A DNA stretch of 64,000 nucleotides from Myxococcota bacterium (GTDB lineage: Bacteria; Myxococcota_A; Polyangia; Nannocystales; Nannocystaceae), in NCBI GenBank assembly GCA_039028615.1, contig JBCCHT010000004.1, forward strand, positions 64,001-128,000, in the 5' to 3' direction. This document shows, in pieces, positions 33,673-64,000 of this stretch. The notes under the pieces were generated by a model, which saw nothing but the letters and a program-made list of their open reading frames with translations, ran no database searches and was not told the origin of the DNA. The stretch's first letter is position 1; every line of letters starts with the position of its first letter. The position numbers and the translations under genes are program-made.

Positions 33673-36084
33673 ATGCTGACCCTGGAGACGCCCCTGTACG
33701 AGTTCGACGGGATCGTGGTGTTCCGTGACCACGCCCAACCGACGACGTTCCACTACCTGGCCGGCTCCCCGCGCCTCACCGTACGCGACGGCAAGCCGCA
33801 CCTCGCGTTGCTGAAGTATCGCGAGGCCCTCGACGCGAGCCCCACCGCGCCCGCGGTTCGCGATCAGCTCGGCGGCGGCTTCATGACCTTCTCCGTCGAC
33901 TGCGGCGTCGATGCGGAGACCCTCCAGTCCATTCGCGACGAGCTCGCCAAGACCCTCCCCGACGACGCCCGCGACCAGCTCAGCCTCGTGCCCGTGCTGT
34001 ACACCAAGGGCAAGGTCGAGGTCATCGCCCTCGACCGCCAGCAGGGTCTCGCCGACGACCCCGATTCCGATGATGCCGATACCCCGGCCACACGCTTCGT
34101 ACGGGGCGTACTGGGCTCGGCGACCCCCTCGCTGTTCCAGGACCAGCGAGCCGTGTTCTCCATCGCGCTGAGCCCCGATGGCATCGCCTTGCTCGAGCAA
34201 GCCTATCGCGCGGAGCTGTCACCCATCGGGGTGCTCTACGAGCTCGAGTTCAGCGGCCTGCGCCCCGCCCTCAGCGTTCGCGTGCGTGCCGACGCCGAGC
34301 GCATCTACGAACAGTTCAAGACCGGCCTGAACATCGGGATCGACGTCGGCGCGACGGAAACGTCGGGCACGCCCGCTCCGAGTTCAGGCTCCGACTCGAA
34401 CCAACCCGCCCGCAGCGGCGTGGCGCTGGATTTCGAGATCGAAAAGACCATCGAGTCCCTGGTCGAGTCCGGCGCCATCGAGATCGAGGTCGTCCAGCAG
34501 CAAGTCGGCGACGACATCGACAAGCTCGAGGCCGAGGCGATGAAGCTCGTCAAGGAGGACATCCTGAAGGAGTTCTTCTCACCCACGCTCAGCGCCATGC
34601 CCAGCCAGCCGCTGGCCAACGACCAGATGCGAGAGCTGGCGTCGTCCATCTCGGACATCAGCCGCGGCCAGAGCCGAAACCCCACCACGAGGCAGAAGAA
34701 CGGAGTGGAGCTGGGCTTTCAGCTGCGCTACCGCCACAGCGAGGAGCAGAAGGTCATCACCTACGACTACGACGTGGCGGCTCCCGAGACCCGCACCCAC
34801 GCGCCCAACGGCTTCTTCTCCGCGCTCGTCGGCGACACGAACATCGAAGACCACATCCGCGAGGTCGACCTCGCCGACCCCTTCTTCCAGACCCTCGAGG
34901 TCGAGGTCCAGACCACCCCCGAGTTCGAGCGTCTCGCCATCGCGTCCATCGTGGTCGACCTCCAGTACGGGGGCACCGAAGACGCACCGCAGCAGACCGC
35001 GTCGCTGCTCTTTTCTCCCGACGACCCCGAGCCCAAGTTCTTCCGCTCGTTTCGCAACCAAGACGACTTCTCGTATCGCTACCAGGTGAGCTACCGCTTC
35101 GCCCCCAGCGATGACGTGGCCGCTGCGAGCCAGGCGCTCACGACCCCGTGGCAGACGACCACCAGCCGTGCCCTGGTCGTGCACCCGCCCGAGGACATCG
35201 GCCTGATCAGCGTGCTCGTCGAGCCGGCGGTCATCCCCTGGGACCTGGTGCCCAAGGTGGAGGTGAAGCTGTCCTACGAAGATCCGGCCTCCGCGTTCCG
35301 AACCGAGCGCAGCTTCGTGCTCGACCCGACCAGCGACGCCCAGCCCTGGATCGTACGCGTGCCCGAGGGCGCGCCCACCGACTACACGGCGCAGTACACC
35401 TGGCACCTGTCCAACGGCTCGAAGATCGAAGGGGAGCCGCAGACCCAGGGGCATCCGCGCCTGTTCGTGCCCAGTCCCTTCGGCGGCCAGCAGCTGCGAC
35501 TGCGGGTCGTGCCCGCGGTCGACCCGAGCAGCGTGGGTCTGGTGCTCGCCGAGATCGCGCATACCGACCCGGGCACGGGGCTCGAGATCCGCCGCACGCT
35601 GTCGATGTCGCCGCCCTATCGGGCCCAGTGGGTGAAGATTCCGCTCATCGACCCGCAGCACACCGAGGTCACCTGGTCCTACCGCCTGCATCCGACCGGC
35701 GGCGGCACCCCGGCAGAAAAGGGGCCCTTCGTCACCGGGTCGCGCGCGCTGGTCATCACCGAAGGCGACGTCATGCTGCACGACCTCGAGCTCGTGGTCT
35801 CGGGCGACCTGCTCGCCGTCGAGGTCCTCGCGCTCCAGGTCGATCTGCGGGCCGAGCCCCCGGAAGGTCGGCAACCGGAGATCGTGAGCCACTTGTTCGA
35901 GGCCGGCGGCGAGACGAGCACCCGAGTGCGGCTGAACCTGCGCGCCGATCGAGACCCGGTATTCGAGTATCAGACCACCGCCCTCATGATGAACGGCGAT
36001 GCGATCGTGCGCGCCTGGGCCCCGCATGGCGGCCCCGCGCTGGGGCTGGCGGTCGCGACGGTGGTCACGCCCAACGAAGACTGA
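33673..36084 (+). CDS. Uncharacterised paralog-family protein A (803 aa; core domain plus beta-sandwich repeats)
   Basis: GAGGA RBS; FRDH..P..FHYL..PRL, GGGFMTF, PIGVLYELEFSGLRPA, DPFF; closest to 61394..63700. Confidence 0.9.
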   Translation: MLTLETPLYEFDGIVVFRDHAQPTTFHYLAGSPRLTVRDGKPHLALLKYREALDASPTAPAVRDQLGGGFMTFSVDCGVDAETLQSIRDELAKTLPDDARDQLSLVPVLYTKGKVEVIALDRQQGLADDPDSDDADTPATRFVRGVLGSATPSLFQDQRAVFSIALSPDGIALLEQAYRAELSPIGVLYELEFSGLRPALSVRVRADAERIYEQFKTGLNIGIDVGATETSGTPAPSSGSDSNQPARSGVALDFEIEKTIESLVESGAIEIEVVQQQVGDDIDKLEAEAMKLVKEDILKEFFSPTLSAMPSQPLANDQMRELASSISDISRGQSRNPTTRQKNGVELGFQLRYRHSEEQKVITYDYDVAAPETRTHAPNGFFSALVGDTNIEDHIREVDLADPFFQTLEVEVQTTPEFERLAIASIVVDLQYGGTEDAPQQTASLLFSPDDPEPKFFRSFRNQDDFSYRYQVSYRFAPSDDVAAASQALTTPWQTTTSRALVVHPPEDIGLISVLVEPAVIPWDLVPKVEVKLSYEDPASAFRTERSFVLDPTSDAQPWIVRVPEGAPTDYTAQYTWHLSNGSKIEGEPQTQGHPRLFVPSPFGGQQLRLRVVPAVDPSSVGLVLAEIAHTDPGTGLEIRRTLSMSPPYRAQWVKIPLIDPQHTEVTWSYRLHPTGGGTPAEKGPFVTGSRALVITEGDVMLHDLELVVSGDLLAVEVLALQVDLRAEPPEGRQPEIVSHLFEAGGETSTRVRLNLRADRDPVFEYQTTALMMNGDAIVRAWAPHGGPALGLAVATVVTPNED

Positions 36085-36090
36085 GCGGGG

Positions 36091-36678
36091 CTACGGCGGG
36101 TCCGTCGCGCTGACCGTCCAGATCACACGGTCGTCGACGACCTCGACATCGAGCGCTGCCTGTACGCCGTTGAATTCGGACAGCGCGAGGAAGACGGTGC
36201 CGACGCCTCGCAGATAGACGATGTCGTCGCGCATGACTCGGGGCAAGGCCACGCCGACGACGGACACCCGAGCTGGACCCTCGACCTCGACCCCGAGCGT
36301 CCCCGCGTTGCGGATCACGAGCATGTAGCCGCGCGGCACGATGCGCAGGACCGCGACCCCTCTGCCGCCGAAGATCCGCAGCCCCGATTTCACGAAGGCG
36401 GAGAGCAGAGGCTTGTCGACGGCCCGGATGAAGGCTTCCTTGCCCCAAGCCATCATGGCGTCGAAACCGGAGACCGCGACTACGGCACGAGTGAGCTCGA
36501 TGTCGTACTGCAAGGGCACCCAGGTCACCTTGGTGCTCTGCTCGATGCCCTGCAGGACCTCGGGATCGACAGACTCTCTGACCCGCCGCTCGGTCGACTC
36601 TCCCAGATAGCGAAGGTTCTGGAGGTTCTCCCGAACGAACGATGACCGCATCACCGGTGCATCACCGCCACTCGTCAC
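36091..36678 (-). CDS. Hypothetical protein resembling myxobacterial DUF2378/V4R-like proteins
   Basis: TWVPLQYDIEL..AV, WGKEAF, NAGTLGVE, YLRGVG pattern; family call from recalled resemblance only. Confidence 0.5.
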   Translation of the reverse strand: MTSGGDAPVMRSSFVRENLQNLRYLGESTERRVRESVDPEVLQGIEQSTKVTWVPLQYDIELTRAVVAVSGFDAMMAWGKEAFIRAVDKPLLSAFVKSGLRIFGGRGVAVLRIVPRGYMLVIRNAGTLGVEVEGPARVSVVGVALPRVMRDDIVYLRGVGTVFLALSEFNGVQAALDVEVVDDRVIWTVSATDPP

Positions 36679-36808
36679 GCTCCGAAACTATCACCGCGGC
36701 CCCGAACCTCGATGCCTCCGAAACGGGACGATGGCGTTCGGAGGGCCCCACACTCCAACCGCTCACGAGCGATTGCGAACCTCTGGCCTCAAAGGGCCTC
36801 GGGATCGC

Positions 36809-38266: not shown

Positions 38267-38281
38267 TTTGTCAGTAGCATC

Positions 38282-41725: not shown

Positions 41726-44092
41726 TCAGCCTTCGACGGGAGGCGGCTTGAGGACCAACACGTCCTTGTTCTCGGTGGCCGTAGGCAATTTGTGCTCTTT
41801 GCCCTCCGAGTCATAGAGCGTGAGCGTGTACTGGAAGCTCCGACGATCGGGGTGCACGAGCCGGAAGCGCCAGGCCAGCGGCTTGTGGAACTCGGAGATG
41901 GTCATGGTGGTCTCCGCTCGCACTTCCGGCTCCTCTTCGTCCTGGAACTGGAGGTGCAAGGTGCCGAAGGTGAAGCGCCCCGGCGGGATGTTGAGCAGCG
42001 TGGGAATGACCTCGACGCGCACGCTGAACGGGTCACCCACCGTCAGGATGTTGGTGTCGGTCTTGCGCCACGCATCCTCGCGAACGACCCCGTCGGAGTA
42101 GACCGCCTTGACCTGGTACTCGTACTCGCGCCGCTGCGAGTCGACCAATGGCACGGCCCACCTCGCATTGTCACTCTCGCGTGACAAGGTGACGATCTCG
42201 TCGACCACGCGGTCGTCCTCGTACGTGTACTTCATCGCGACGAGCACCTGCGAGAGCAGGCCATCTTTGCCGAAGTTACCCGCCGGAACGATGATGACCT
42301 CGAGTTCGTCCTTGAGCGGAGAGTCGATGAGCAGCGTGCCACTCCGAGACTTCTGCTCCGGCAGCACGATGCGCTGATCGTCCTTGGTCCGCACCGTCAG
42401 CGTGTACGTGTAGGCCTGGTCGATCTTGTCACCGATGACCGCCGTCCACTCGTGGTTCTGGTTGTCCTCGTCGATCATGAACTGGGTCTCGTGCGCACTA
42501 CGGCCGCGGCCGTAGGCCATGTCGACCTGGATCTGCGCGATGCGATCCCAGTTGATGAGTCCCGCCTGGACGGCCACCTTGAGCACACCGAGCGAGTCGG
42601 TATCGAGCACCAGGATGGTCTCGTCGGTCGTGCCCTCGATGGTGTAGTTCTCGCTCGAGTCGCGGTAGAAGACCTCGATCTCGTAGTCGTAGGAGCGCTT
42701 CTTGACGTCGGCGAGATAGGTCAGGAAGTGCTTGGGGTTGGGGTCGTCGGCCCGGAACACGAAGTCCGCGACCTCGTTCTGGTTGCCCAGCTCGCCGGCC
42801 TCGTCGTAGTGCAGGTGCACCTTGACCAGGTCGACGGGGTCGCGGCTGAAGTCGGTGGTGCACAGCACCTCGACGTCGAGATACTTGTACCAGTCGTCCT
42901 CGAGCTCGACCTGAGCCCGGAACTCGGCCGGCTCGTGCCCGTCGAAGATGTTGGTGAGGTTGGCCTGCGGCCCCACCCTCCCCTCGAGCACCTTCTTCAT
43001 CTTGAAGGTGTGATTGAGGGTGGCGGACATGGACTGGTTCCAGTCCTTGAGCGAGTACTGGCTGATGCTGTCGCGGCCGTACTTCGTGTCGCCGTACTCG
43101 GGCAGGGACGTCTCGACCTCGGGGAGTTCCTCGGTCTCCGCCTGGACCGGCGTGTAGTCGAGAAACGCATCGGCCATGAACTCCGAGAGCATCGACTGCC
43201 CGGTGGTCATGAGCGTCTGCTCGGCGTCGGGATCGAGGGGAACACTGGGCGTGATCTTGACCCCCGAGAACTGGCTGGCCGAAGAGACCTCGCGCAGTAC
43301 GTCGCCCGCGCTCATCGACTGGTCGTGGCTATACGACACGGTGGTCGAGCTACCGCTGGTGCGACGGCTGAAGCTGGCGTTCTCTTGCAGGTCGTTCCAC
43401 TGCTCGTGGATCAGCGAATGGGTCTTCCGCGCATAGCACCACACCCGCATCTCGACCGCGTCGAGGCGGTGATGGAAGAGCAGATCGTAGTTGACCAAAA
43501 CGGCCGTCAGGTCGCGCTCGAAGGCCTCCCACAGCAAAACGGCGCCATCTTGGGTCAGCTTGGCCTGGAACGCGGCGCGCTGGTTGCCCGTCATGCTGGC
43601 CTTGCTCGAGCCCACCAGGCTGGCGACGAACTCGCCCTGGGTGTCCTCGTTCTCCGAGGACTCGCCGAGGATGCCGATGTTGACCGCCCCGTCGAGCACG
43701 GGGAGCCCGGTGAGCTTGAGGGCCTTGGCCAGCTCCTTGGGGTCCTCTTCGGCCTCGTCGATCCACCACTTGCGGGTCTTGTGGCTACGAGCCAGGCGCT
43801 TGTGCAGCACGGGGTCCTCGGACACCGTCTTGCGGATCTCGAGTTCCTGCTCGTCCGTCATGGTGAGCTCGACGGTCAACGACAAGATGCCGCCGCCGAG
43901 CTTGGTCTTGCGCTCTTCTTCCGTCAGCTCGCTGACGTCGCGCCGGTACCAAATCAAGGAGATGAGAGGTTTGCCGTCCGCGTCCTTCGCTACGGTGGGC
44001 GTGCCCGTCACCGTATAAAGGGTGAGCGGGTCCACATCGTCGGGATAGACGTTGCAATCGGCGATCGTTCGGAAGCCGGTCAGGGTGAGCAT
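41726..44092 (-). CDS. Uncharacterised paralog-family protein B (788 aa)
   Basis: ATG 44092 after GAGGG; MLTLTGFRTIADCNVYPDD, SLIWYRRD, GGGILSL, LTQDGAVL, repeated YxYxxxxxxxDG domains. Confidence 0.9.
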   Translation of the reverse strand: MLTLTGFRTIADCNVYPDDVDPLTLYTVTGTPTVAKDADGKPLISLIWYRRDVSELTEEERKTKLGGGILSLTVELTMTDEQELEIRKTVSEDPVLHKRLARSHKTRKWWIDEAEEDPKELAKALKLTGLPVLDGAVNIGILGESSENEDTQGEFVASLVGSSKASMTGNQRAAFQAKLTQDGAVLLWEAFERDLTAVLVNYDLLFHHRLDAVEMRVWCYARKTHSLIHEQWNDLQENASFSRRTSGSSTTVSYSHDQSMSAGDVLREVSSASQFSGVKITPSVPLDPDAEQTLMTTGQSMLSEFMADAFLDYTPVQAETEELPEVETSLPEYGDTKYGRDSISQYSLKDWNQSMSATLNHTFKMKKVLEGRVGPQANLTNIFDGHEPAEFRAQVELEDDWYKYLDVEVLCTTDFSRDPVDLVKVHLHYDEAGELGNQNEVADFVFRADDPNPKHFLTYLADVKKRSYDYEIEVFYRDSSENYTIEGTTDETILVLDTDSLGVLKVAVQAGLINWDRIAQIQVDMAYGRGRSAHETQFMIDEDNQNHEWTAVIGDKIDQAYTYTLTVRTKDDQRIVLPEQKSRSGTLLIDSPLKDELEVIIVPAGNFGKDGLLSQVLVAMKYTYEDDRVVDEIVTLSRESDNARWAVPLVDSQRREYEYQVKAVYSDGVVREDAWRKTDTNILTVGDPFSVRVEVIPTLLNIPPGRFTFGTLHLQFQDEEEPEVRAETTMTISEFHKPLAWRFRLVHPDRRSFQYTLTLYDSEGKEHKLPTATENKDVLVLKPPPVEG

Positions 44093-51980: not shown

Positions 51981-54785
51981 ATGGCAACGGCCAACCGCAA
52001 CACGTTCATGCGCAGCCTCGCCAGCCGCGAGCTGCTGGTCGATACCCGGCGCCGCGAGGTCGCGCACGCGGCTGCGATGGTCTCGGCCACGTCGAGGATC
52101 GCGTCTCATGTGCTCCCGTGGATGAAGATCATCGAGCAGCTGCCGGTCTTCGAAGAGTCCTCGCGCCCCAAGGAGACCAGCAAGACCATCAAGGACATCC
52201 ACGGCAAGCAGTGGATGACGGTCCGCTACTGGCTCGATGCCGCCGACCCCGTCGTGCGCTTCAACCACGACGGCCTCACCGTCGAGCTGCAGCCGTTGTA
52301 CGGCCAGGGGCCCGTGCCCACCGTGCAGGGCCAATTCCTCCCCGTCATCGGGTGGAAGGCGACGATCGAGGGCATCTCGGGGGCGCGCAAGCGCACCATG
52401 ATCGCGAGCTGGCGCGCCGACGACAACGGCAAGTACAAGCTCACCCTGTCGTACGACTTCGAGAACGACAACGACCGCGAGCTCGTACGCAGCGCCATCC
52501 GTGGCGATGGCATCACCATCAAGACCTCGTGGAACCACCGGGCGAGCTATCGCAAGCCGACCTCCGCGACCTTTACCGGCACCAACCAGCCCTCGGGTCG
52601 CCCCACGGGTACCGGAACGGGGGGTGGGCGCACGATGGTCAGGCCTCGTGCCGCCGCCACGATACCCACGGCCACGCTCGCCACCGCCGCGACCCGGGTC
52701 GCACGGCACGGCGCCGGTTTTCGCTTCCCCGTGGGCGTCGCGGGGCTCGTAGGCGCACCTTCGCCGGTCCGACGACGCGCGAGGAAGGTCTCTGCGAAAA
52801 AAGTCTCTGCCAAGAAAGTCTCTGCGAAAAAAGTCTCTGCCAAGAAGACCGCGAAGAAGACCACTCGACGGCGGCGACGGCCGACGCGGCGCAACCCGCC
52901 CCCCCCCCGTCAGCCGCAGACCCCACCGACCCCCTACACGTTCACGCAGACCAACTCGGTCCCCATCAACGTCGCCGATCCCAGCCACGAGATGTGGCAG
53001 GACGGCCCCTCGCCCTGGAAGCCCTTCGCGCCGGCCCATAGCCGCACGATGTACTACCGCGCGACGGGCCGACCGGCGGAGTTCGAGTTTCTGCCCAGCG
53101 AGTTCCGGCTCGGCTTCGACATCACCAAAGACGTCCCCGCCCTGCTGCCGTTCGTCTACAACCCGCAGAACGACGGCGGCACGCTGCAAGAGGACAAGCG
53201 GCGCATCGAGATGCGCATGATGGCGACGCCGCACGTCGAGCCGCAGCAACGCGAGGAGCTGCGCGCCTGGATCCAAGATCGCGAGTCGGTCGAGCTGGCG
53301 TACCTGGTGCCGCCCGTCGTGCAGGGTCGCTTCGTCATCGACGTCGCGCCTCAGGGCGCCACCATCCTCGAAGAGGACGAGACGGTCGAGCTGGCCGGGC
53401 TCTTTTGGGCTGACTTCGACTTCCCGCTCGAGTCCTGGGCTCCGAACCTCGAGATGATCTCGCAGCCGGGCGGCGGCGTGGTCGGCAAGATCTTCCTCGA
53501 CATCCTGCCCGACACCGAAGGCAGCGACGTCAGCGTACCGGTGAGGCTGAGCCTCTCCGATCTGCACGCCGACGTCGTCGAAGTGCGCCAGGGCCAGCCC
53601 GATTCCGACGGCGTCCCCCGGCACTTCTTCCTGCGGAATCGACTCCAGCGACCCGTACAGCTGGACGCGCCCACCATCTATCTCGCCGCGCAGGCCACCA
53701 ATGCCGCGCTCCCCACCGGCGTGCGCAAGGGTCAGCCGGTCGGGCCCTTCGCCCCCCAGCTGGGCCCCGGTGAAGAACGCAAGGTGCACGTGCAGCCCCA
53801 ATCCGGGGAGCACGTGTGGAATACCCTCGTCGTCGACCTCGGTCGCGTCAGCGTCACCACTCCCGACGAGGGCTGGACCGACACCATCAACGTCAACGCC
53901 TCCGATGGTCAGGCGGTGTACCCGGTCACCATCCGGGCGGTGAACCTCGGCGACAGCGCGCAGCCCGTGCCGGAGTACGACTCCACGTGGGTCTCGCTCC
54001 AGCCCCTGCAGGGCACGCCCGCCGATCCTCCCGACGGCCGCCTCGAGCGGGGCACCAAGGAGTGGTCCACCCGCATGTGGCTCGGTCTGTCCGAGCTGTG
54101 GGACCTCGAACAAGACCCCGCCAAGGCCAAGGTCCACGCGGTCGAGCTCCGCAGCGACTACGCCGACCTCGAGGGGCTGCCCCAGCGCATCTACGGCGCC
54201 GCGTCCAACGTCACCGTTCGGGTGCTCAGCACCGAGCGGCCGGACTCGAAGTACATCCTCCGCGACGAGGACCGCAACATCCTCGAAGAAGGCCTCGACC
54301 GCGCGACCACGCTGTCCCGCATCGAAGCGCGGCGCGCCGCCGACCAGGGCTGGACGCTCAGCGTCGTTCCGGTTCCGGGCCAGCCCGCGGAAGAAGAGAA
54401 CGACGACGACGACGATCGCAACGCCACCAACGACGGCGACACCACCACCGACGACGGCAACGACACCACCACCGACGACGGCGATCCCCCCACGGAGACG
54501 CAACCCGCCGGGCCGTCCATCGTCATCAACCCGATCACGTTGGATTTCAACGTGCTCCAGATGGTGTTCGTCACCCTCACCATCGGCGAGGGCGATGGTT
54601 CCGTCACCCGCACCTTCCGCTTCGACGCTGGCTCCACCGCCGCACAGGAGTGGGCCCCCGCCCGAGAGCCCGGCACCCCCGTGCGCTCCAAGACGGTATT
54701 CATGTTCAAGGACGGCACCAACCACATGACGCCCACGACCCAGGTCGACGGCGACATGGTGTTGGTGATGATGCCCGACACCTGA
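51981..54785 (+). CDS. Divergent cluster protein F (934 aa) with basic low-complexity insert
   Basis: 13 nt after E; internal FEFLPSEFRL..PALL resembles the family N-terminal motif; C-terminal domain resembles the family repeats; KVSAK repeats. Confidence 0.85.
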   Translation: MATANRNTFMRSLASRELLVDTRRREVAHAAAMVSATSRIASHVLPWMKIIEQLPVFEESSRPKETSKTIKDIHGKQWMTVRYWLDAADPVVRFNHDGLTVELQPLYGQGPVPTVQGQFLPVIGWKATIEGISGARKRTMIASWRADDNGKYKLTLSYDFENDNDRELVRSAIRGDGITIKTSWNHRASYRKPTSATFTGTNQPSGRPTGTGTGGGRTMVRPRAAATIPTATLATAATRVARHGAGFRFPVGVAGLVGAPSPVRRRARKVSAKKVSAKKVSAKKVSAKKTAKKTTRRRRRPTRRNPPPPRQPQTPPTPYTFTQTNSVPINVADPSHEMWQDGPSPWKPFAPAHSRTMYYRATGRPAEFEFLPSEFRLGFDITKDVPALLPFVYNPQNDGGTLQEDKRRIEMRMMATPHVEPQQREELRAWIQDRESVELAYLVPPVVQGRFVIDVAPQGATILEEDETVELAGLFWADFDFPLESWAPNLEMISQPGGGVVGKIFLDILPDTEGSDVSVPVRLSLSDLHADVVEVRQGQPDSDGVPRHFFLRNRLQRPVQLDAPTIYLAAQATNAALPTGVRKGQPVGPFAPQLGPGEERKVHVQPQSGEHVWNTLVVDLGRVSVTTPDEGWTDTINVNASDGQAVYPVTIRAVNLGDSAQPVPEYDSTWVSLQPLQGTPADPPDGRLERGTKEWSTRMWLGLSELWDLEQDPAKAKVHAVELRSDYADLEGLPQRIYGAASNVTVRVLSTERPDSKYILRDEDRNILEEGLDRATTLSRIEARRAADQGWTLSVVPVPGQPAEEENDDDDDRNATNDGDTTTDDGNDTTTDDGDPPTETQPAGPSIVINPITLDFNVLQMVFVTLTIGEGDGSVTRTFRFDAGSTAAQEWAPAREPGTPVRSKTVFMFKDGTNHMTPTTQVDGDMVLVMMPDT
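52785..52844 (+). repeat. 15-bp coding tandem repeat, (KVSAK)x4
   Basis: AA(G/A)GTCTCTGC(G/C)AA(A/G) x4, followed by KTAKKTTRRRRR. Confidence 0.9.
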
Positions 54786-54796: not shown

Positions 54797-56995
54797 GTGA
54801 GCGCGACTTCGTCTCCTCCGACTTGCCCGGGCTGTGACCGCCCCGTCGAGCCCTCGGAGGAGGCATGCCCGGCCTGCGGCCTACCGCTGGTGATCGCGGG
54901 ACGCTATCGGCTCCACGAGCGACTGGGGCGCGGCGGCATGGCTTCCGTCTACGGCGCCCAGAGCATCGACGACGACGCTCCGGTGGCCGTGAAGCTGATG
55001 CGGCTGGCCGATCACGACGACTGGAAGCCGCACGAGCTGTTCGAACGTAGCTCTCGCGTGCTGCGACAGCTCGACCACCCGCAGCTCCCGGTGGTGCATG
55101 ACTTCTTCGAGTTCGACGATGGTGGGCTGGCCCTCGTACGAGAGCGCCTCGACGGCGGCAGCTTGGCCTCGAGGGTCGTCGATGAGGATTGGCGCGCCTC
55201 TCCGGCCGAACTCCGCGCGCTGCTGGAGTCGTTGCTCGGCGTGCTCGAGTACCTCCACGGCCGCACGCCCCCGGTGGTCCACCGCGACATCAAGCCGTCG
55301 AACGTCATGTTCCGACACGATCGCTCGCGGCCCGCCACGGATAACCCGCCCGTCGTCGCCGACTTCGATTGCATCGCAGCCGTAGGAGCCTCTTCCTTCT
55401 CGGGCGGCAGCAGCACCATCGTCGTCTCGCCCGGCTTCACGGCGCCCGAGCAGCTCGCGGGGACGAGCTCCCCGGCCAGCGACCTGTTCAGCCTGGGCAT
55501 GACGATGGTCTTTGCGATCACCCACCGCGAACCGGACTCGTTGCCCCGCGACGACGCGGGTCGAGTACGGCTCGGCTCCGCGCTGGATGGGTTCGATCCG
55601 GCCTGCGCTCGAATCCTACGCATGTTGATCGAGCCCGATCGACGGTCGCGTCCTCCCAGCGCGACGTGGGCACTGCAGCAGCTCGAGGGCACGAGTCCAG
55701 CGAGCACCCGACAGACGCCGTCCTCCCGCGTACCGCACCGTGCCCTGATCTCGGGCCTCGTCGTCACGGCGGCGATCGTCGGCGGCGGTAGCCTGCTGTC
55801 GACCCTCAGAGACGAAGAGGCACCCGCCCCGAAGACACACACGGCTCCAGCCACCACTGCGGACGACGAGACCCCTTCGGTCGCATCCCCCGCTGCCCCA
55901 GTGCAGCCTCCGCTTCATTGCCGTCGAGACCACGAGGCCGACTGCGATGGAGCCCGCGACAACGGCTGTGAGGTAGACCTGCGAACGTCTGCCCTTCATT
56001 GCGGACGCTGCGAACACTCGTGTGACCCACAGCAGGTGTGCCGTGCGGCAGAGTGTTCGGCTCGAATCACCGCCTTCGCCGTCGGTAGCGGTGGGCACTG
56101 CGAACAACGCAGCGACGGAAGCCTGTGGTGCAGCGACGGGCTGCGCTCGGAGCTGCGGCAGGTGGACCTCCCTCATACCGTACGCTCCTTCGACATCGAG
56201 AGGCATCGCTGCGCCATGGCAGAGGGGGGCCAGCTGTACTGCTGGGGCGACAATGGCGTGGGGCAGACCGGAACCGGATCGAAGCGGCGCAAGGAGCCCG
56301 CGCCGCTGGTACTCGAGGGACTCCACCACGTCACGCAGGTCTCCCTCGGTCGCCACACGGGGTGTGCCGTCGCCGAGGGCCAAGCCCACTGCTGGGGCTC
56401 GTCCCTCAGCTTTGCGGTGATCGGGACTCCCGAGGAGTATTCGGCGCGCACCCCCATCGTGGTCGCCGGCATGGACGACGTAACGAGCCTCGACAGCGGC
56501 CCCATGCACGTCTGCGTGATTCGACCGGAATCGGTGTGGTGCTGGGGCGATGGTCGAGGCGGGGCCACCGGAGACCCTTCGCGCCCCCAGGGCAGCCGCC
56601 CCACGAAGATCGAGGGCCTCACGGACGCGACCTCCCTCGCCCTCGGTCGCGATCATTCGTGCGCCGTGCGCTCCGCGGGCACGGTCGCCTGCTGGGGGAC
56701 GAACGCCGATGGCCAGCTCGGTGACGGGACGACCGAAGACCACACGACCCCCGTCGAGCTGAGCGTGGTCGACGTGGTGGAGCTTCGCAGCGACCACGCG
56801 CGAACCTGTGCCCGACAGTCCTCGGGCGCCGTCCACTGCTGGGGAGACCCCACGGCCACCGACCACCTCCCCTACCCCGTGGAGCTTCCGGGAGCCGCCA
56901 CGCAGATCGCCATGCAGCGCGACACCTTGTGGGCGCTGGTCGACGGCCGCCTCGTGACGCAACGCGCGGGCAAGGCCGCCCGCGCGAAGGACTAG
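54797..56995 (+). CDS. Ser/Thr kinase with N-terminal zinc ribbon, TM helix and C-terminal RCC1-like repeats
   Basis: CPGC..CPAC, LGRGGMASVY, VAVK, HRDIKPSN, ADFD, TAPEQ, TM segment, HCGRC motif, repeated CWGxNxxGQ(L/T)G; GTG start at 54797. Confidence 0.9.
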   Translation: MSATSSPPTCPGCDRPVEPSEEACPACGLPLVIAGRYRLHERLGRGGMASVYGAQSIDDDAPVAVKLMRLADHDDWKPHELFERSSRVLRQLDHPQLPVVHDFFEFDDGGLALVRERLDGGSLASRVVDEDWRASPAELRALLESLLGVLEYLHGRTPPVVHRDIKPSNVMFRHDRSRPATDNPPVVADFDCIAAVGASSFSGGSSTIVVSPGFTAPEQLAGTSSPASDLFSLGMTMVFAITHREPDSLPRDDAGRVRLGSALDGFDPACARILRMLIEPDRRSRPPSATWALQQLEGTSPASTRQTPSSRVPHRALISGLVVTAAIVGGGSLLSTLRDEEAPAPKTHTAPATTADDETPSVASPAAPVQPPLHCRRDHEADCDGARDNGCEVDLRTSALHCGRCEHSCDPQQVCRAAECSARITAFAVGSGGHCEQRSDGSLWCSDGLRSELRQVDLPHTVRSFDIERHRCAMAEGGQLYCWGDNGVGQTGTGSKRRKEPAPLVLEGLHHVTQVSLGRHTGCAVAEGQAHCWGSSLSFAVIGTPEEYSARTPIVVAGMDDVTSLDSGPMHVCVIRPESVWCWGDGRGGATGDPSRPQGSRPTKIEGLTDATSLALGRDHSCAVRSAGTVACWGTNADGQLGDGTTEDHTTPVELSVVDVVELRSDHARTCARQSSGAVHCWGDPTATDHLPYPVELPGAATQIAMQRDTLWALVDGRLVTQRAGKAARAKD

Positions 56996-57002: not shown

Positions 57003-59174
57003 TCACAGCTTGATGACGAGCAGCGGGCTGGTGGACTCGCCCGCGCGCAGCTCGTTCTCGCCTTCGATGCCGATCGAGGTCACCGTGTACGAGTAGGCGA
57101 GCTGCCCGTCTTCGTCGAGCGGGAGATCGACCGTGGCCTGGGGCGAATCGGCGGCGGTCATGAGCACGGCGAAGGGCTCGTCGTCGACCATCAGGTCGAT
57201 GCGCACGGCGAGCGCATCGCCGAAGGCCCCCAACCGCGCGATGCGGATCTGCTTGGTGCGCCGCGGCTTGGGCCCGAGCACGACGACGGGGCGCTCGAGC
57301 GGCTCCCAGTCGTCGGACTGCTCGACGGTGCCGTCGGCGAATTGGATCAGGCGACTGACCTCGAAGGCCCGCTTCTGCGGATCGAGCAAGGGAACCTGCA
57401 CCGCGACGGCCTCGGGCGGGGAGCCGGGGTCGAAGCGCAGGGTCTTCTCGAAGACGTGGTCCTCGTCCATGTAGCGTAGGGCCACCTCCCCCCACAGCAC
57501 GGCTTGCCAGTCGAGGTTGGGGAGCACTCGAACCTCGAGCACGTCGCGGAAGGGCCCGAGCGCGACGAGGTGATCGCCCTCGAGGTCCTCCCACTTGCCT
57601 TCCTGGGGTACGCCGTCGCCGTCGAGCCAGTCGATGCGGACCTGGACCGGGATCCGGCCCTCGCCCGCGGGCTGGCGTACGCGCCAGGTGGTCTCGGGCG
57701 TGGCCTCGTCGAGCACGATCTCGTGGCTGAGTTCGGTGTCGGGCACGGCGAGCGACACCCGGAAGCCGGTGACCGAGCCCGCCACCAGCGGTCCGGCCAC
57801 CAGGCGGACGGCGCGGGAACGGAAGTGGTCTTGGGGCTGCACCACCAGCTGACGACTGGTGCTCTCGAAGGGGCCGACGGAGATGGAGCCTGGTCCCTGC
57901 CCGTTCGTATCGTCGAAGCTCAGATCCACCGACCAGCGGTAGGTGTCGTCGCGCGGGCCATCCATCGCATCGGTGAACACGGCCGGCTCGACCGCGTCCG
58001 CGTTGAACGCAAAGGAGGTCCGGTCTTCGCCGTGGGCGAGGTGCACCACGACCTCGCGCAGGTCGGGATAGGAATCGAAGTCGATGGCCGGACGCAGCGT
58101 CACCCGGAGGTGATCGAAGAAGTCGTCGTCGGTGTCGATCTCGAGGACCTTGGGGGTCTCGCCCTCTTCTTCGTCCCACTGGTTGGTCAGCAGGCCCACG
58201 CAGGTGTGGATGAGCGACACGGCGGAGCGGCCGCTCCACTCCATGCGGAAGGTCTTGAGCTCGTCGGTGCGCTGGTACTTCAGCTTCCCCACGAACATCG
58301 CCGACGACGCGGTCGGCTCGCCGTCGCCGAGGATGGAGGTCAGCATGTTGGCCAGGGCCCCGCCCTGACTACCCGCGGTGGGGGATGGCGGCATGCCGGG
58401 CTGGAAGAAGTCCTGGGCGACCCGCATGCGCACCAGCTCATCGACCAGCTGTCGCTGCCACTTGTGGTCGGCTTCGGAGCTGAACTCGGTGATCTGGATG
58501 TCGATGTAGCCGTTCTCTCGCAGCCACGCGAGCTCGGCGTCGAGCTCGACGCGGACCGCCGAATACTCGAAGCCGATCGAGGCGGCGAAACGATCGTAGA
58601 CCCGGTCGTAGTCCATCTTGACCGTGGCGTGCAGCGCGGGCAGCAAGCCGTCGAAGCCGAACTCGTAGGTCATGCCGGCCGGGACCGCGCCGCCGGCCAC
58701 CGCCTGCTCGATGAGGGCCGCGCCCTCGGCCGTGAGGTCCAGAGCAAAGGTCGCCCGGTGCGGAGCGGCGGGCGAGACCGGGACTTCGCTGCGGGCCACC
58801 GTGATCATGCCGTCGTCACGGTTGTCGCCGATGAGCAGCTGCGCCTTGCCGCTGAGGAACAGGGGCTGGGACACGCGAGCGTTCTGGCGCCCGGCGAGGC
58901 GGCTCACCTCCGTGCGCAGCGCCTCGAGCTCGTTGTCGGCGATCGAGGCGTCGGAGGTCAAAAAGGCCATGCCCGCGCCGACCGCCCGGGTGGGATCGAG
59001 CTCGGGGTTGTCGGTCAGGTCGCGCCGATACTTGTAGAGCACGAACTCCGGGCCCTCTTCGCCGCGGGAGAGGCGAGCCCGCGGGGGCAAGGCGTAGAAC
59101 TGATCGGGGTCCTCGTGGTCTCGCAAGACCGTGGTCCCGCGCACCGAGTAAAAGGGCGGTTCGAGAGTGATCAC
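57003..59174 (-). CDS. Uncharacterised paralog-family protein G (723 aa)
   Basis: VLRDHEDPDQFYALPP, FVLYKYRRD, LTAEGAAL, PAGMTYEFGFDGLLPA, DDFF. Confidence 0.9.
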   Translation of the reverse strand: MITLEPPFYSVRGTTVLRDHEDPDQFYALPPRARLSRGEEGPEFVLYKYRRDLTDNPELDPTRAVGAGMAFLTSDASIADNELEALRTEVSRLAGRQNARVSQPLFLSGKAQLLIGDNRDDGMITVARSEVPVSPAAPHRATFALDLTAEGAALIEQAVAGGAVPAGMTYEFGFDGLLPALHATVKMDYDRVYDRFAASIGFEYSAVRVELDAELAWLRENGYIDIQITEFSSEADHKWQRQLVDELVRMRVAQDFFQPGMPPSPTAGSQGGALANMLTSILGDGEPTASSAMFVGKLKYQRTDELKTFRMEWSGRSAVSLIHTCVGLLTNQWDEEEGETPKVLEIDTDDDFFDHLRVTLRPAIDFDSYPDLREVVVHLAHGEDRTSFAFNADAVEPAVFTDAMDGPRDDTYRWSVDLSFDDTNGQGPGSISVGPFESTSRQLVVQPQDHFRSRAVRLVAGPLVAGSVTGFRVSLAVPDTELSHEIVLDEATPETTWRVRQPAGEGRIPVQVRIDWLDGDGVPQEGKWEDLEGDHLVALGPFRDVLEVRVLPNLDWQAVLWGEVALRYMDEDHVFEKTLRFDPGSPPEAVAVQVPLLDPQKRAFEVSRLIQFADGTVEQSDDWEPLERPVVVLGPKPRRTKQIRIARLGAFGDALAVRIDLMVDDEPFAVLMTAADSPQATVDLPLDEDGQLAYSYTVTSIGIEGENELRAGESTSPLLVIKL

Positions 59175-59196
59175 GTCGATGGCCTCGCGGGGTGCC

Positions 59197-61377
59197 TCAG
59201 GTCAGGGGAAAAACGGCGATGAGCGCGGTGGTGGTCACCGGGTCGAGCTCTTCGCTCGTGCCGTCCATGGCGATCTTGGTCAGCTGATAGGACCACTGCT
59301 TGACCTCGGGGTCGCGCTGGGGGAAGCGCCACTTTTGGGGCTGAGCCACCGATCGGATCAAGCGCTCTTCCTCGACCTGCACGTCGTTGTCGGGGTCCTC
59401 GTATTCGAAGCGAACCTTGATGCCCAGCAGGCCGGCCGAAGCGAGCGTAGCCCCCAGGATCATCAGCTGCACCTCGCGGAGCTGGGCGATGCCCGTGCCG
59501 ACCACCAGCCGCGTCCCCATCGAGGGCAGCCACTCCCCCTCTTCGACCTCGTTGAGCATGCTGTGCGAGGTCACGCGGTAGGACCACCCTCGCTCCTCGG
59601 GCTCGGGCAGCGGCACCGACCAGGTCGCGAAGGGTTTGTCTCGGTCGAGCACCAGCGTCTGGACCTCGTCCTCGTTGGAGTCGAGGCGAAGCTCGACGAT
59701 GAGCCGCGCGACCTCGGTGCCGAACATCGCCGAGCCGAGCACCTGCACGTCGAGCACGTCGGGATGCGGATGACCAACCACCATCGTGCCCGGCTCCACC
59801 GTCTCCCAGTCGCGGGCCGTCTCGTCGCCGGACTCGTCGACGTAGCGCACCCGAGCCCGCACGCCGACCGCCTCCTCGGCGCCGACCCGAATGCCCATGG
59901 TGGCCTCGCGCCCCGTGGCGGAAAGCTCGTGAGTTCGCACGATGGAGCCGCCCGCCGCGGTATCGAAGGCGACGTCGACGATGACGGTGGGGTAGTCCTC
60001 GAAGGGCACCCCGAGCGCCACCACGCGTAGATCGACGCGGCGGAACAGCTCGCGCGGATCGACCCGCAGCACCCGGTCGTCGGTCTTCCACTGCGCCTGC
60101 TCGAGCGCCGCCGCCGGCCCGTCGTCGGAGGCGGGCAAGTGCGCCGTATAGGCCACGCCCACCTCGGGCCCCTGCTCGGCGTCGAACCAGAACTTCACCT
60201 GCGCCCGGGGCTCGGCCGCGGTCAGCAACAGCCGCTCCTCGCGTTCACCGTAGCTCATGCGAACTTCGACGGACTCGATGCCTTCTTTGGCCATGTCGAC
60301 GGCGCAGCCGACATCGAACTCCATCTCGGGGTTGGGACCCGGCTCGACCTCGAGCACGATGTCGTCGAGGTCGACCGAGCGATCCTCTCCCCACAAGCCG
60401 GTCAGGATGCCCTGCGGAGCCAGGGTGAGGTGCTCGGCCCGAGCGGCCCGCATCTCCCAGGTCAGCGTCTTGAGCTCGTTCCGATCGACCGAGCGCAGGC
60501 TATAGGTGACGGCGAACAGGCCCACCACGTCGCCGACCGCCCGAGAGATGGCGTCGAGGTTGCCTTCGGTGTCGACCCCGGTCGGCGCCTGGCCCAGGGT
60601 CGGCCGAAAGAACTCCTCCAAGACATGGTCGAGCACTTGCTTGACCGCCGCGTCGTAGGCCGCGGTGTGCTGGTCCTCGGGTACGAGGTGATCGACCTCC
60701 ACCTGCACCTGCTCGCTGCGGATGAGGTCTTCGAGCATCGCCCCGATGTCGACCGCGAGCAGCAGCTTGCCGCCGTGGAGCCGGTTCTCGTAGTACTCGT
60801 AGACGTCGCGCCAGCGGGCGACCACCCGGGCCCGCAGCGCGGGGCGGATGCCCTGGGTGCGCAGCTCGTAGACCACGGCCACGGGCACATCACCGCCCTG
60901 CAGCGCCGCCTCGGCCACCGAGGTGCCCTCGGGGGAGAGCACGGCCATGAACGACGCGGTCTGGTGCCCGTACAGCGAAGGCGCCACGGCGCCGAGGATC
61001 CGCTCGGTGAGGATGGACTCGCCTTCTTGATCGTTGGCGCGGTCCATGACCACCAGGCGACACTGCCCCTGGTCGGCGGCCACAGGCACCAGCGTGGGAA
61101 GCTCGTCGAGATCGAAGCGCGTCAGCAGCCGTGATCGCAGGCTCGACAGGACCTCCTCGTCGACCCGCAAGTCGACCATGAACGACAGCAACCCGCCGCC
61201 GAGCACCTGGTGGAGCTCGGGGTCGAGCCGATACTTCACCAGCCGCAGCTCGGGCTCGTCGTCGCGCCAGACCAGCGAGGGCCGGTCGGGCAGGTAGTGG
61301 AAGAGCCCCGGATCAGCGTGATCGGGGAACAGGGTTACCCCCAGGGCGGTGAGTGCCGGGCGGCCGAGGTCGATCAT
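59197..61377 (-). CDS. Uncharacterised paralog-family protein H (726 aa)
   Basis: LFPDHADPGLFHYLPDRP, GGGLLSF, LSPEGTSV, PVAVVYELRTQGIRPA. Confidence 0.9.
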   Translation of the reverse strand: MIDLGRPALTALGVTLFPDHADPGLFHYLPDRPSLVWRDDEPELRLVKYRLDPELHQVLGGGLLSFMVDLRVDEEVLSSLRSRLLTRFDLDELPTLVPVAADQGQCRLVVMDRANDQEGESILTERILGAVAPSLYGHQTASFMAVLSPEGTSVAEAALQGGDVPVAVVYELRTQGIRPALRARVVARWRDVYEYYENRLHGGKLLLAVDIGAMLEDLIRSEQVQVEVDHLVPEDQHTAAYDAAVKQVLDHVLEEFFRPTLGQAPTGVDTEGNLDAISRAVGDVVGLFAVTYSLRSVDRNELKTLTWEMRAARAEHLTLAPQGILTGLWGEDRSVDLDDIVLEVEPGPNPEMEFDVGCAVDMAKEGIESVEVRMSYGEREERLLLTAAEPRAQVKFWFDAEQGPEVGVAYTAHLPASDDGPAAALEQAQWKTDDRVLRVDPRELFRRVDLRVVALGVPFEDYPTVIVDVAFDTAAGGSIVRTHELSATGREATMGIRVGAEEAVGVRARVRYVDESGDETARDWETVEPGTMVVGHPHPDVLDVQVLGSAMFGTEVARLIVELRLDSNEDEVQTLVLDRDKPFATWSVPLPEPEERGWSYRVTSHSMLNEVEEGEWLPSMGTRLVVGTGIAQLREVQLMILGATLASAGLLGIKVRFEYEDPDNDVQVEEERLIRSVAQPQKWRFPQRDPEVKQWSYQLTKIAMDGTSEELDPVTTTALIAVFPLT

Positions 61378-61393
61378 GGGAGTCCCTTCCTAC

Positions 61394-63700
61394 TTAGAGT
61401 TCGTCGAGCACGGTCGCGGCGGGGATGGGCAGCAGGCTGCGGTCCCACCGGGTCCAGCGGCCTTCTTCCATGTCGCCCGATTCCAGGATCGCGGTGAGCT
61501 TGTACTCGAACGAGGCGGCTTGGTCCTCGCGCACGATCATCGAGTGGGTGAAGCGGGTCTCGCCCCCGGGCTCGAGCAGTTGGCTGTGGGTCTCCTGGAT
61601 CACGCCGTCGGGCGGGTCGCAGCGCAGGTCGACCTGCAGGCCGAGCAGGCCGGCGGAGGCCAGGTTGCCCAGCACGATGACCCGAACATCGAAGCGCCGC
61701 CCCGCGGGCAAGACCGCGATGAGCTCCTCGTCGGTGGTGACGCGAGGACGATTGACCGCCTCGCCGCCCGCCGCGGGCACCAAGCTGATCGCATAGGAGT
61801 ACTCGCGCCGCTCGGGATCGATGATGGGGATGTCGACGGTCTGCGTGGCGAACTGCGGCCCGATGATCTCAACCGCCTTGCGCACGACCAGGTCGTTGTC
61901 CTCGTCGTCGTACTCGAGGTGCACGAGCACCCGCTGCACCTGGGTCGGGTCGACCTGCGGCACGATGGTCACCGCGAGGCGATGCGGGAACGGGTCGCCG
62001 ACGTACAGGTGCCGGTTTTCGCTGGTGGTGGGCTCGCCGTCCACCTCGCTGCCGTTTTTCAGGTGCCAGCGGTTCTTCACGGTGTAGGCCCGCGGCGCCT
62101 CGGGGGGCAGCCGCACCAGCCACCGCTCCCGCTCGCTGTCCTCACGGATCACCATGGTCCGCTCGTCCTTGAAGTCGGAGGCCTCGTGCTCGTAGGTCAG
62201 GGTCGTCTCGATCTGATCGACGGTCGCCCAGTCCACCACCCCGGGCTCGACCCACACCGAGAGCATCTCGACGTCGGAGGCGGGGTGCACCACCTGCGCC
62301 CGGCTGGTGGAGACCCGCCACGGCGTCTTTTGGTGGTTGTCGAGCGACGCGACCTCCTCGGAGCCCCCGAAGAAGTACTCGAGCTGATAGCGGTAGGAAA
62401 AATCGTCGTCGTCGCGGAAGGCCTGGAAGGTCTTGGGCTCGGCGTCCGTGGCCGAGAAGGTGGCCGTCCACGACTCGCGGGGGTCGTCTTCGGTGCCGCC
62501 GTACTGGATGTGCAGCAGCGCCGTCTCGAGGTCGAGCCCCTCGAAGTCGGCGGCCGTCTGCGCCTGCACGGTCATCGTCTTGAAGAACTGGTCGTCGAGG
62601 TTGATCTCGCGGATGTGCTTGGCCTTCTCGCTGCCCGTGAGCAGGGCCGAGAAGAAGCCGTTGGGCGCGTGGGTCCGCGTCTCCGGGGCGGCCACGTCGT
62701 AGTCGTAGGTGACCGTCTTGAGCTCCTCCTCGTGCTTGTACGCGAGCTCGAGCCCGACTTTGACCTTGCCGCCGCTGCTCTGGCCCTCGTTCATCCTCTC
62801 GCTCGAGGCCACCATGTCGCCGACTTGATCCATGGCGTCCTCGAGCGAGGGCACCTGCTGCTGGCTCATGCGCGGCTTGAACAGCTCCTTGAGCAGCGTC
62901 TCCTTGAGCAGCGTCATGGCCTGCCGCTCCATCTCGTTGACGTCGGAGCCCTCTTGCTGGCGAATGATCTCGACCTCGATCGCCCCTTGCTCCTTGAGCC
63001 AGGACAGCGTGGCCCCGATGTCGACCCCGACCTCCACCCCGTCGGCCTCGACCCCCACGTTGAGCTTGGCCTCGAAGCCGTCGTAGACCCGCTTGAGGTC
63101 CGCCCTGACCTTGACCGACAACGCCGGCCGCAGGCCGCTGAACTCGAGCTCGTACATGACCCCGATGGGCGACAGCTCGGACTCGTAGGCCTCCTCGAGC
63201 AGCGTGGCCGCCCCGGGCGTGAGCGCCAGCGAGAAGATCGCCCGCTGGTCCTGCATGAGCGACGGAGTGGCCGTGCCCAGCACCTTGCGAATGAAGCGAC
63301 TGCCCTCGGGGGTCGACTCGGCGCCCGACTGAGCATCGAGCGCCAGCACCTTGACCGTGCCCTCGGTGTACAAGACGGGCACCAGGCTGATGGGCCCCGA
63401 ACCGGGAGGCATGCGCGACTGGAGCTCCCGCTTGATCTTCTGCTTGGTGTCGTCGGCGATCCCGCAGTCGACCCCGAAGAGCAAAAAGCCGCCGCCGAGC
63501 TGGTCACGCTCGACGGCGCTCATCGAGCTGGAGCTGTCGAGGGCGTGCCGGTACTTGAGCAGCAGTAGGTGGGGCTTGCCGTCTTCGTCGCGGGTCAGCC
63601 GCGGCGGCCCGGCCAGGTAGTGGAAAAGCGTGGGAACGGCGTGATCGCGGAAGATCACGACGTTTTCGATCTCGTAGAAGGGCGTCTCGAAGGTCAGCAT
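61394..63700 (-). CDS. Uncharacterised paralog-family protein I (768 aa)
   Basis: IFRDHAVPTLFHYLAGPPRL, GGGFLLF, PIGVMYELEFSGLRPA, DQFF. Confidence 0.9.
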   Translation of the reverse strand: MLTFETPFYEIENVVIFRDHAVPTLFHYLAGPPRLTRDEDGKPHLLLLKYRHALDSSSSMSAVERDQLGGGFLLFGVDCGIADDTKQKIKRELQSRMPPGSGPISLVPVLYTEGTVKVLALDAQSGAESTPEGSRFIRKVLGTATPSLMQDQRAIFSLALTPGAATLLEEAYESELSPIGVMYELEFSGLRPALSVKVRADLKRVYDGFEAKLNVGVEADGVEVGVDIGATLSWLKEQGAIEVEIIRQQEGSDVNEMERQAMTLLKETLLKELFKPRMSQQQVPSLEDAMDQVGDMVASSERMNEGQSSGGKVKVGLELAYKHEEELKTVTYDYDVAAPETRTHAPNGFFSALLTGSEKAKHIREINLDDQFFKTMTVQAQTAADFEGLDLETALLHIQYGGTEDDPRESWTATFSATDAEPKTFQAFRDDDDFSYRYQLEYFFGGSEEVASLDNHQKTPWRVSTSRAQVVHPASDVEMLSVWVEPGVVDWATVDQIETTLTYEHEASDFKDERTMVIREDSERERWLVRLPPEAPRAYTVKNRWHLKNGSEVDGEPTTSENRHLYVGDPFPHRLAVTIVPQVDPTQVQRVLVHLEYDDEDNDLVVRKAVEIIGPQFATQTVDIPIIDPERREYSYAISLVPAAGGEAVNRPRVTTDEELIAVLPAGRRFDVRVIVLGNLASAGLLGLQVDLRCDPPDGVIQETHSQLLEPGGETRFTHSMIVREDQAASFEYKLTAILESGDMEEGRWTRWDRSLLPIPAATVLDEL

Positions 63701-63709
63701 GGCGGTGAC

Positions 63710-64000
63710 TCAGTCGGTGGGGGGCGACAAGACGAGCACTTGGGAGCGGGCCTGCACCCAGTCTCCTCGAAGAACTCCTACGTCGGAGGTGATGAAAATC
63801 TGCCGATACGAATACGCGGGGTCGTCGGCGGTGGCGCTGCGGAAGGTCCAGGTGCTCTCGGGGGCGCCGGGGCGGAAGCTCAGCAGCTTGCTCCCCGCGT
63901 CCGGCCCGGCCGGCTTGAGCTCGACCTGCGCCATTCGCAGGTTGTCCATCGCGTCGAGCCGGAACGGGACCACGGTGACCGCCGCCATATAGGGATCGCG
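63710..64000 (-). CDS. 3' end of a further cluster gene (J), truncated by the window edge
   Basis: Frame open to the window end; DPY..VTVVP..VELK..W..YSYRQIF..G..W..VLVL matches the family's terminal repeat. Confidence 0.75.
   Translation of the reverse strand, partial: RDPYMAAVTVVPFRLDAMDNLRMAQVELKPAGPDAGSKLLSFRPGAPESTWTFRSATADDPAYSYRQIFITSDVGVLRGDWVQARSQVLVLSPPTD

Follow-up and report, generated by a model that had tools for sequence, protein, structure and literature searches.

What would a bacterium do with eight or more diverged copies of one large, unnamed protein, encoded almost side by side? The question is raised by a 64,000-nucleotide (nt) stretch of DNA, here called the window, from a Myxococcota bacterium of the Nannocystaceae (GenBank assembly GCA_039028615.1, contig JBCCHT010000004.1, positions 64,001 to 128,000 of the forward strand), which carries a cluster of such paralogs from position 33673 onward. 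An earlier note on this DNA proposed that the paralogs build an undescribed hetero-oligomeric assembly. That proposal is supported by the clustering of homologs in other genomes, by their division into subfamilies, by gene order, and by a predicted contact between two of the paralogs, H and G. We give a probability of about 65% to the reading in which each of the eight paralog types supplies its own, non-interchangeable subunit to a single undescribed hetero-oligomer inside the cell. By its gene content, the region appears to be a full copy of a conserved nine-gene system, comprising the eight paralog types and the partner protein F, with A and K as extra copies.

A common build for the paralogs

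The 12.3 Mb genome holds ten copies in this cluster, two of which reach past or lie beyond the end of the window. The genes are arranged as follows.

33673..36084, plus strand: paralog A (803 aa), second copy of the A/I subfamily, 5.6 kb from the main cluster; in the AlphaFold2 model the N-terminal domain is encoded by 33673-34887 and four beta-sandwich domains by 34888-36072
41726..44092, minus strand: paralog B (788 aa), B subfamily, divergent to C, with a conserved MLTL start at 44092
45042..47291, plus strand: paralog C (749 aa), opening the operon C-D-E-F
47295..49436, plus strand: paralog D (713 aa), 3 nt past C
49625..51967, plus strand: paralog E (780 aa), E subfamily
51981..54785, plus strand: F (934 aa), a conserved non-paralog partner with only the terminal beta-sandwich in common with the paralogs
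54797..56995, plus strand: Ser/Thr protein kinase with RCC1 repeats (Pfam Pkinase, RCC1), between F and G
57003..59174, minus strand: paralog G (723 aa, GTG start), closing the operon J-I-H-G; predicted to bind H
59197..61377, minus strand: paralog H (726 aa), H subfamily; predicted to contact G
61394..63700, minus strand: paralog I (768 aa), the A/I-subfamily member at the canonical site between J and H
63710..64000, minus strand: 3' end of paralog J, J subfamily; the gene runs past the window (contig C4:127716-129734)

The tenth copy, K, lies beyond the window end, past J. The eight genes of 713-803 aa that had been listed at these positions hold up as open reading frames (ORFs), with B and E starting at the conserved MLTL/MLNL (44092 and 49625) and not at the first in-frame start codons. 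BLASTP matches connect A, B, C, D, E, G, H and I in 28 of 28 pairs, mostly end to end (expectation value, E, 0 to 6e-4; 20-46% identity). The common start motif, central block and FF linker described in the earlier note are likewise present, both in our paralog alignment (A1) and in 73 N-terminal domains from other genomes. In A1, residues M1, D19, P42, L166 and Y189 do not vary, and the consensus is LTPxGAALxExAxxxGxxPIGVxYELxFxGLRPAL for the central block and DLDDxFF for the linker.

An AlphaFold2 model of A, based on 71 aligned relatives, has a mean predicted local distance difference test score (pLDDT) of 84.7 and divides the protein into an N-terminal domain (N-domain, residues 1-405) and four beta-sandwich domains (406-800). 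The latter correspond to the terminal beta repeats of about 95 aa noticed earlier, whose repeat nature is also seen as offset high-scoring segment pairs in BLAST. N-domains are 340-400 aa long across the paralogs. That of A, modelled alone (pLDDT 83.0; predicted template modelling score 0.74), has long strands at 185-207 and 361-376, flanked by several helices, and disordered loops at about 221-251 and 308-332 whose length differs from one subfamily to another. Because only a beta-sandwich core (residues ~29-50 plus ~340-390) is covered by Foldseek alignments of this domain, it appears from the model to be a fifth beta-sandwich, split by an alpha/beta insertion of about 290 aa without a detected solved relative.

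The paralogs, F, and an S8 subtilase that accompanies some clusters are probably intracellular. A Kyte-Doolittle scan detected no N-terminal hydrophobic segment or transmembrane helix in any of them, in agreement with the earlier reading. The N-domain begins no more than 5 residues from the N-terminus in 145 of 150 listed relatives, and no subfamily has lost the M-L/I-x-L start. The paralogs are acidic (net charge -41 to -59), which is little beyond neighbouring proteins. Gaps within the operons had been given as mostly 3-22 nt; this is right for C-D (3 nt), E-F (13), J-I (9), I-H (16) and H-G (22), but D and E are 188 nt apart. Window G+C is 64-70%, and the strong bias at third codon positions is borne out, with G+C there (GC3) at 0.88-0.94 in the paralog ORFs.

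Eight subfamilies in a conserved order

The argument for distinct subunits begins with the phylogeny. A pattern scan using the A/I-subfamily alignment yielded 18 loci, labelled Myxococcota, Acidobacteriota, Verrucomicrobiota, Pseudomonadota, Candidatus Rokubacteria and Actinomycetota (the last including the cultured Cellulomonas alba); carriers thus span diderm and monoderm phyla. A FastTree phylogeny of 81 full-length paralogs, with fragments and the split genes of one locus (L016) left out, resolves clades for A/I (16 rows), G (13), H (9), B (11) and E (5), each with support 100, and for J (12) with support 99. Loci contribute roughly one member to each clade, and the same pairings of organisms recur from clade to clade, which argues that the clusters have been inherited and transferred as units. 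On this tree the paralog subfamilies appear older than the split of the phyla, and eight anciently diverged types can be told apart from the sequences: B, C, D, E, G, H, A/I and J. C-type genes are found also in Verrucomicrobiae, Rokubacteria, Cellulomonas and Kofleriaceae.

Homologs do occur in multi-paralog clusters, a point that the earlier note had named as a check. Every locus with enough DNA has 3-8 paralogs side by side, and whole-genome searches placed all 8-12 N-domain matches in a single 18-31 kb cluster in five of five carriers. In six-frame maps with subfamily hidden Markov models, H comes after A in 16 of the 18 loci, J comes before A in 15, and the series A-H-G is present in 14; departures from this order are due to contig ends or to the duplicate A copy. 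("Genes" of 627-635 aa in loci L006 and L017 proved to be wrong-strand calls over an H-type gene and were discarded.) In the canonical layout, C-D-E-F is convergent with G-H-A-J, and B lies alongside. Cellulomonas alba has this layout complete, with exactly eight paralogs plus F, and it is also complete in metagenome-assembled genomes (MAGs) of Verrucomicrobiae, "Enterobacterales" and Rokubacteria. The window has B, then C, D, E and F convergent with G, H, I and J, plus the extra A copy, K, and the kinase gene between F and G. The flanks vary by locus, and most of the genes there serve ordinary metabolism, transport or DNA repair.

The family at large is both sizeable and scattered. A word-indexed search gave 80 relatives, and all that carry a name are called "hypothetical"; an exhaustive profile search with the 73 N-domains gave 3036 clusters at 50% identity at E <=0.001, and 2038 at E <=1e-10. 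Among 41 genomes of relatives, the window genome included, four have a match, one of the four a single weak one, and 7 of 301 genomes match in a phylum sample. With tblastn the family was found on three plasmids, p2 of Pararhizobium qamdonense T808 and two from Paracoccus, and in none of 50,697 phage records. Judged from sequence comparison, the system is ancient and patchy and has spread horizontally between phyla.

A predicted contact between H and G

Complex prediction was run for one pair, H residues 1-345 with G residues 1-356, each with its own ortholog alignment; H and G were chosen as neighbouring genes in every complete cluster. The two N-domains are predicted to bind, with an ipSAE (interface score derived from predicted aligned errors) of 0.80 (runs 0.82, 0.79 and 0.80) against 0.00 for the best of three controls, ipSAE being the model's own confidence and no measurement. 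In calibration of the tool, 116 of 157 solved complexes attained this mark, as did 2 of 215 mismatched pairs. The model has about 140 contacts, at least 86% of them common between runs, and a partner pLDDT of at least 71. Profile searches identified no homologous complex in the PDB, so the result is not owed to memory of a solved structure. Complex modelling thus gives the kind of contact between paralogs that the earlier note had looked for.

The geometry of the predicted interface is informative in its own right. H contributes residues 4-17, 109-123, 149-171 and 317-327, and G residues 25-51, 67-80, 102-108, 131-146 and 342-353. These two sets overlap in only one column of the family alignment, which argues for a heterologous, head-to-tail contact that would be able to propagate. 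Conservation is higher in the interface columns than elsewhere (0.466 versus 0.399; Mann-Whitney p 1.3e-4), and 16 of the 40 most conserved columns fall in the interface, where 10.9 were expected.

A mechanism can be sketched on this basis. N-domains would join head-to-tail through two different conserved surfaces, and a series of such contacts could close into a ring or build a short helical array, from whose N-domain core the beta-sandwich arms would project outward. F may dock via the terminal domain that it has in common with the paralogs, while the S8 subtilase and an adjacent paralog type, X, would act as a processing or trigger module where they are present. The ring or helix shape, the subunit order, and the roles of F and S8 are features that we infer.

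F and the S8/X pair as partners

F and J had both been put down as carriers of the terminal repeat. For J the description fell short of the whole, as the truncated ORF is the 3' end of a full paralog; for F the terminal repeat is right, but F is not a full paralog. No paralog is matched by F in BLASTP, and hhalign aligns it with the paralogs over the last beta-sandwich only (~86 columns; probability 80%, E 1.4e-5). F-like proteins are found in 8 loci. Residues ~280-310 of F (window ~52820-52900) hold a tandem KKVSA repeat, rich in Lys/Arg, and then a run of Arg, with a weak Pfam match to the histone-H1-like HC2; since the corresponding region in F-like proteins of other phyla consists of Pro-rich linkers, this basic tract is specific to the lineage. 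Actinobacterial F-like genes (L020:17413-21132 in Cellulomonas alba; L022:20050-22845 in an Intrasporangiaceae MAG) encode an N-terminal extension with three Cys-rich repeats, W-x-W-C-x-K-C-x-G-L-(F/Y) ... C-P-A-G-G-x-H-D, that have no Pfam match.

An S8 subtilase of about 1000 aa, with an intact D-H-S triad and without a signal peptide, is encoded in 5 loci, where it usually adjoins the extra X paralog. It is missing from the window cluster and from the examined parts of several other clusters; in the window genome an S8/X pair lies on another contig (C35), and that S8 homolog has a peptidoglycan-binding domain. From their occurrence, S8 and X appear to be an optional module of the system.

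Searches against known families and folds

The earlier note could not name the family, and neither sequence nor fold searches identified a characterised family, including any confident match to a monomeric one. Pfam, NCBIfam, PHROGs and PADLOC offered nothing usable for the paralogs or F, only sub-threshold or low-complexity matches: PHROGs had no paralog match at E <0.01, and 0 of 5027 models in PADLOC-DB 2.0 matched any of 12 proteins at E <=0.1. Profile searches of the PDB with alignments A1, A5 and A6 returned nothing below E 0.5.

Fold searches used the whole model and the whole N-domain, and matched only beta-sandwich parts, in generic arrays of immunoglobulin (Ig), FN3 and MG domains. 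The best full-length Foldseek matches were pilus-adhesin Ig/MG arrays and alpha-2-macroglobulins (E down to 4e-8, at TM-scores of at most 0.19). With the N-domain as query, Foldseek found no PDB entry at E <=0.001. The sole fold match of the domain at that threshold was the Medusavirus stheno protein A0A7S7YF07 in BFVD (E 1.6e-6, probability 1.00, 234 columns, TM-score 0.28); as a single protein of 417 aa with no assigned function, it explains nothing for the N-domain. The ESM Atlas held only unnamed clusters of the same family. The main text of open-access papers yielded no description of the system. In the fold searches the N-domain insertion was covered as part of the larger models.

Contractile machines find no support either. 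The earlier note saw no hallmark genes of type VI secretion systems, extracellular contractile injection systems or phage tails, and Pfam agrees: among 28 other window ORFs and the flanks of related clusters it detected no sheath, tube, baseplate or AAA+ ATPase genes. A Baseplate_J match in the relative P0019 (25.7 bits) was rejected, being weak, inside a variable insert, and present in 1 of 27 long relatives scanned.

Weighing the hetero-oligomer against its alternatives

Several observations weigh against a single obligate complex of eight subunits. The hetero-oligomer is itself predicted, from genes and a structure model. In the calibration of the complex prediction, near relatives of a real partner passed too, in 10 of 12 colicin pairs, so the H-G score gives no pair specificity or subunit order, and the enrichment of conserved columns in the interface is modest. 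The Kofleriaceae MAG has the layout without F. In Pararhizobium qamdonense the set comprises five paralogs, an F-like gene and, within the operon, two other uncharacterised genes (L023 15320-17988; 304 aa and 588 aa) that match neither Pfam nor the paralog or F profiles. An Acidimicrobiia MAG (L016, 5258-12594) has B, J and A each split into 2-4 ORF fragments, with H, G, F and E apparently intact; either the copy is in decay or the assembly contains frameshifts, and the fragmentation argues that the system is dispensable. No enzyme motif, ATPase or membrane protein was found in the cluster, and its flanks are unrelated housekeeping genes. Lastly, the window genome has about seven further copies away from the cluster (on C35, C6, C14, C30 and C2, and two together at C4:272-277 kb), which leaves room for members that act alone.

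The alternative that fares best adds a function to the hetero-oligomer and excludes nothing in it. By analogy with complement C5b-9, or with gasdermin and its protease, the paralogs could be a protease-triggered membrane-attack or abortive-infection effector, assembling stepwise into an inner-membrane pore after S8 cleaves a subunit. The system is rare and patchy and has moved between phyla as a unit, which would suit such a device, as would the pairing of a subtilase with an intact triad and no signal peptide with an X paralog in 5 loci. The N-domain could be read in the same light: its strands at 185-207 and 361-376 are flanked by helices and two variable disordered loops (221-251, 308-332), and the predicted head-to-tail contact uses beta-strand segments. 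However, the MACPF signature (Y/W)G(T/S)H(F/Y)x6GG is found in 0 of 9 proteins (A-I and F), Pfam detects no MACPF, thiol-cytolysin (cholesterol-dependent cytolysin) or gasdermin N-terminal domain, and no pore-former stands out in the fold searches with the N-domain. Nor was any amphipathic hairpin signature found. PADLOC matches are lacking, the flanks are unlike defence islands, and S8 is missing from the window cluster and the examined parts of several others. On balance we consider the membrane-attack function unlikely.

Less probable still is that the paralogs are independent soluble binding or scaffold proteins of different specificities, clustered for co-regulation without a common complex. 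The copies outside the cluster would fit, as would a copy number that varies from 5 to 12 per genome and the frequency of tandem beta-sandwich arrays in binding proteins. But independent binders sit poorly with one gene per subfamily in a fixed order kept over six phyla, and with an N-domain that is the most conserved part of the protein and has its motifs in the predicted inter-paralog interface. A secreted surface fibre, adhesin or toxin complex, released by lysis or an unrecognised export route, is very improbable: the Foldseek matches to pilus adhesins and alpha-2-macroglobulins (at those low TM-scores) and the peptidoglycan-binding domain of the C35 S8 homolog speak for it, whereas the paralogs, F and S8 have neither signal peptide nor transmembrane segment, an N-terminus conserved from Met1 speaks against a leader that is cleaved off, the clusters have no secretion-system gene in common, and carriers belong to diderm as well as monoderm phyla.

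Likeness to known assemblies

Hetero-oligomeric rings of paralogs are familiar from the eight-paralog chaperonin CCT/TRiC and from the alpha and beta subunits of the 20S proteasome. The COMMD ring of the Commander complex is another such ring (for a paper on COMMD, see PMC13392464). Like these, the cluster has several old paralogs of one architecture, each encoded by a single gene, and the heterologous contacts predicted for its paralogs could close a ring. In contrast to them, it shows no sequence or fold relation to the known rings and its paralogs are without an ATPase or protease domain; it is bacterial, operon-encoded, patchy and mobile, and is known here from genes and models, with no ring observed.

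Ordered pore formers built from paralogs provide a second comparison, with the complement C6-C9 membrane attack complex and the tripartite Hbl/Nhe/AhlABC toxins as examples. Assembly of the membrane attack complex follows a proteolytic trigger, a parallel to the optional S8 module. The cluster differs in that its paralogs lack MACPF motif, Pfam match and secretion signal; nor is the N-domain of the all-helical ClyA fold, since the models are beta-rich and no helical head-and-tail of ~350-400 aa is seen. Bacterial gasdermin operons are likewise patchy accessory loci, in which a cytoplasmic protease gene stands beside one for a non-enzymatic, effector-like protein, but the cluster proteins are three times larger, come in eight paralog types, and have the protease as an option.

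Alpha-2-macroglobulin, complement C3 and thioester-containing proteins, and the Ig-array pilus adhesins, resemble the paralogs in having tandem FN3/MG-like beta-sandwiches, one with a large insertion. The paralogs, however, are about half the length of alpha-2-macroglobulin and lack its thioester, signal peptide and lipobox: a regex for the thioester motif C(G/L)EQ matched 0 of 9 proteins (A-I and F), and Pfam gave no MG, A2M, TED or receptor-binding domain at E <=1 in the nine. Of pilus-adhesin features, an N-terminal hydrophobic segment is absent and the start is conserved from Met1; LPXTG was not searched for. The structural likeness is best attributed, from the models, to generic beta-sandwich arrays.

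Other genes of the window and of related loci

The kinase encoded between F and G (54797-56995, plus strand) has an N-terminal Cys4 zinc-ribbon-like motif and C-terminal RCC1 repeats. In a syntenic Myxococcales MAG its place is taken by a second F-like gene (L013:16727-19297), which puts the kinase outside the conserved system. A second kinase gene (39147-41084, minus strand) lies between A and B. Further upstream, a trypsin-like protease gene (21561-23045, plus strand) overlaps the start of an 831 aa ORF (23042-25537) without a Pfam hit; this ORF was considered as a paralog and rejected for want of a profile match.

Elsewhere, actinobacterial clusters have two adjacent genes upstream of B (L020:3770-5244 and L022:3970-5252; 230 or 166 aa, and 262 aa) with no Pfam match, which may belong to the system in Actinomycetota. 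Upstream of the extra A by a few kb, a related Myxococcales MAG (L005 2758-6026) encodes a SIR2-CHAT fusion and a caspase-like protein (Peptidase_C14), adjoining a kinase and an extracytoplasmic function (ECF) sigma factor; the window has other genes there. In the "Enterobacterales" MAG (~10.2 Mb), whose label or binning may be wrong, a gene beside the cluster encodes MopE-like and FG-GAP repeats.

Implications

Because the system is rare, mobile and dispensable, our guess is that it has an accessory function in conflict or stress. The boldest picture compatible with the evidence is a machine of eight paralogs of about 750 aa in fixed order, forming a ring or cage with beta-sandwich arms on a fold without a solved relative. 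It would be carried as a mobile 20-30 kb module in at least six phyla, armed with a subtilase in some lineages, and would possibly serve as a membrane-attack-like immune or killing device. Taken as a whole, we regard this picture as tentative, with odds somewhat short of even.

The hetero-oligomer itself would matter on several counts. The family is large, yet without a name in Pfam, NCBIfam, PHROGs or PADLOC. Its hosts devote considerable space to it, with the system taking 0.5-1% of the DNA in genomes of 3.0-3.8 Mb, and cultured carriers that are not pathogenic exist in Cellulomonas alba MW4, whose compact nine-gene cluster lies at G338:C1:170671-191085, and in Pararhizobium qamdonense T808, where the operon on plasmid p2 encodes WP_276121415 to WP_276121422. 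If the reading is true, an eight-paralog complex would be very unusual for bacteria, a design otherwise familiar from machines of eukaryotes and archaea, among them chaperonins, proteasomes, and the membrane attack complex.

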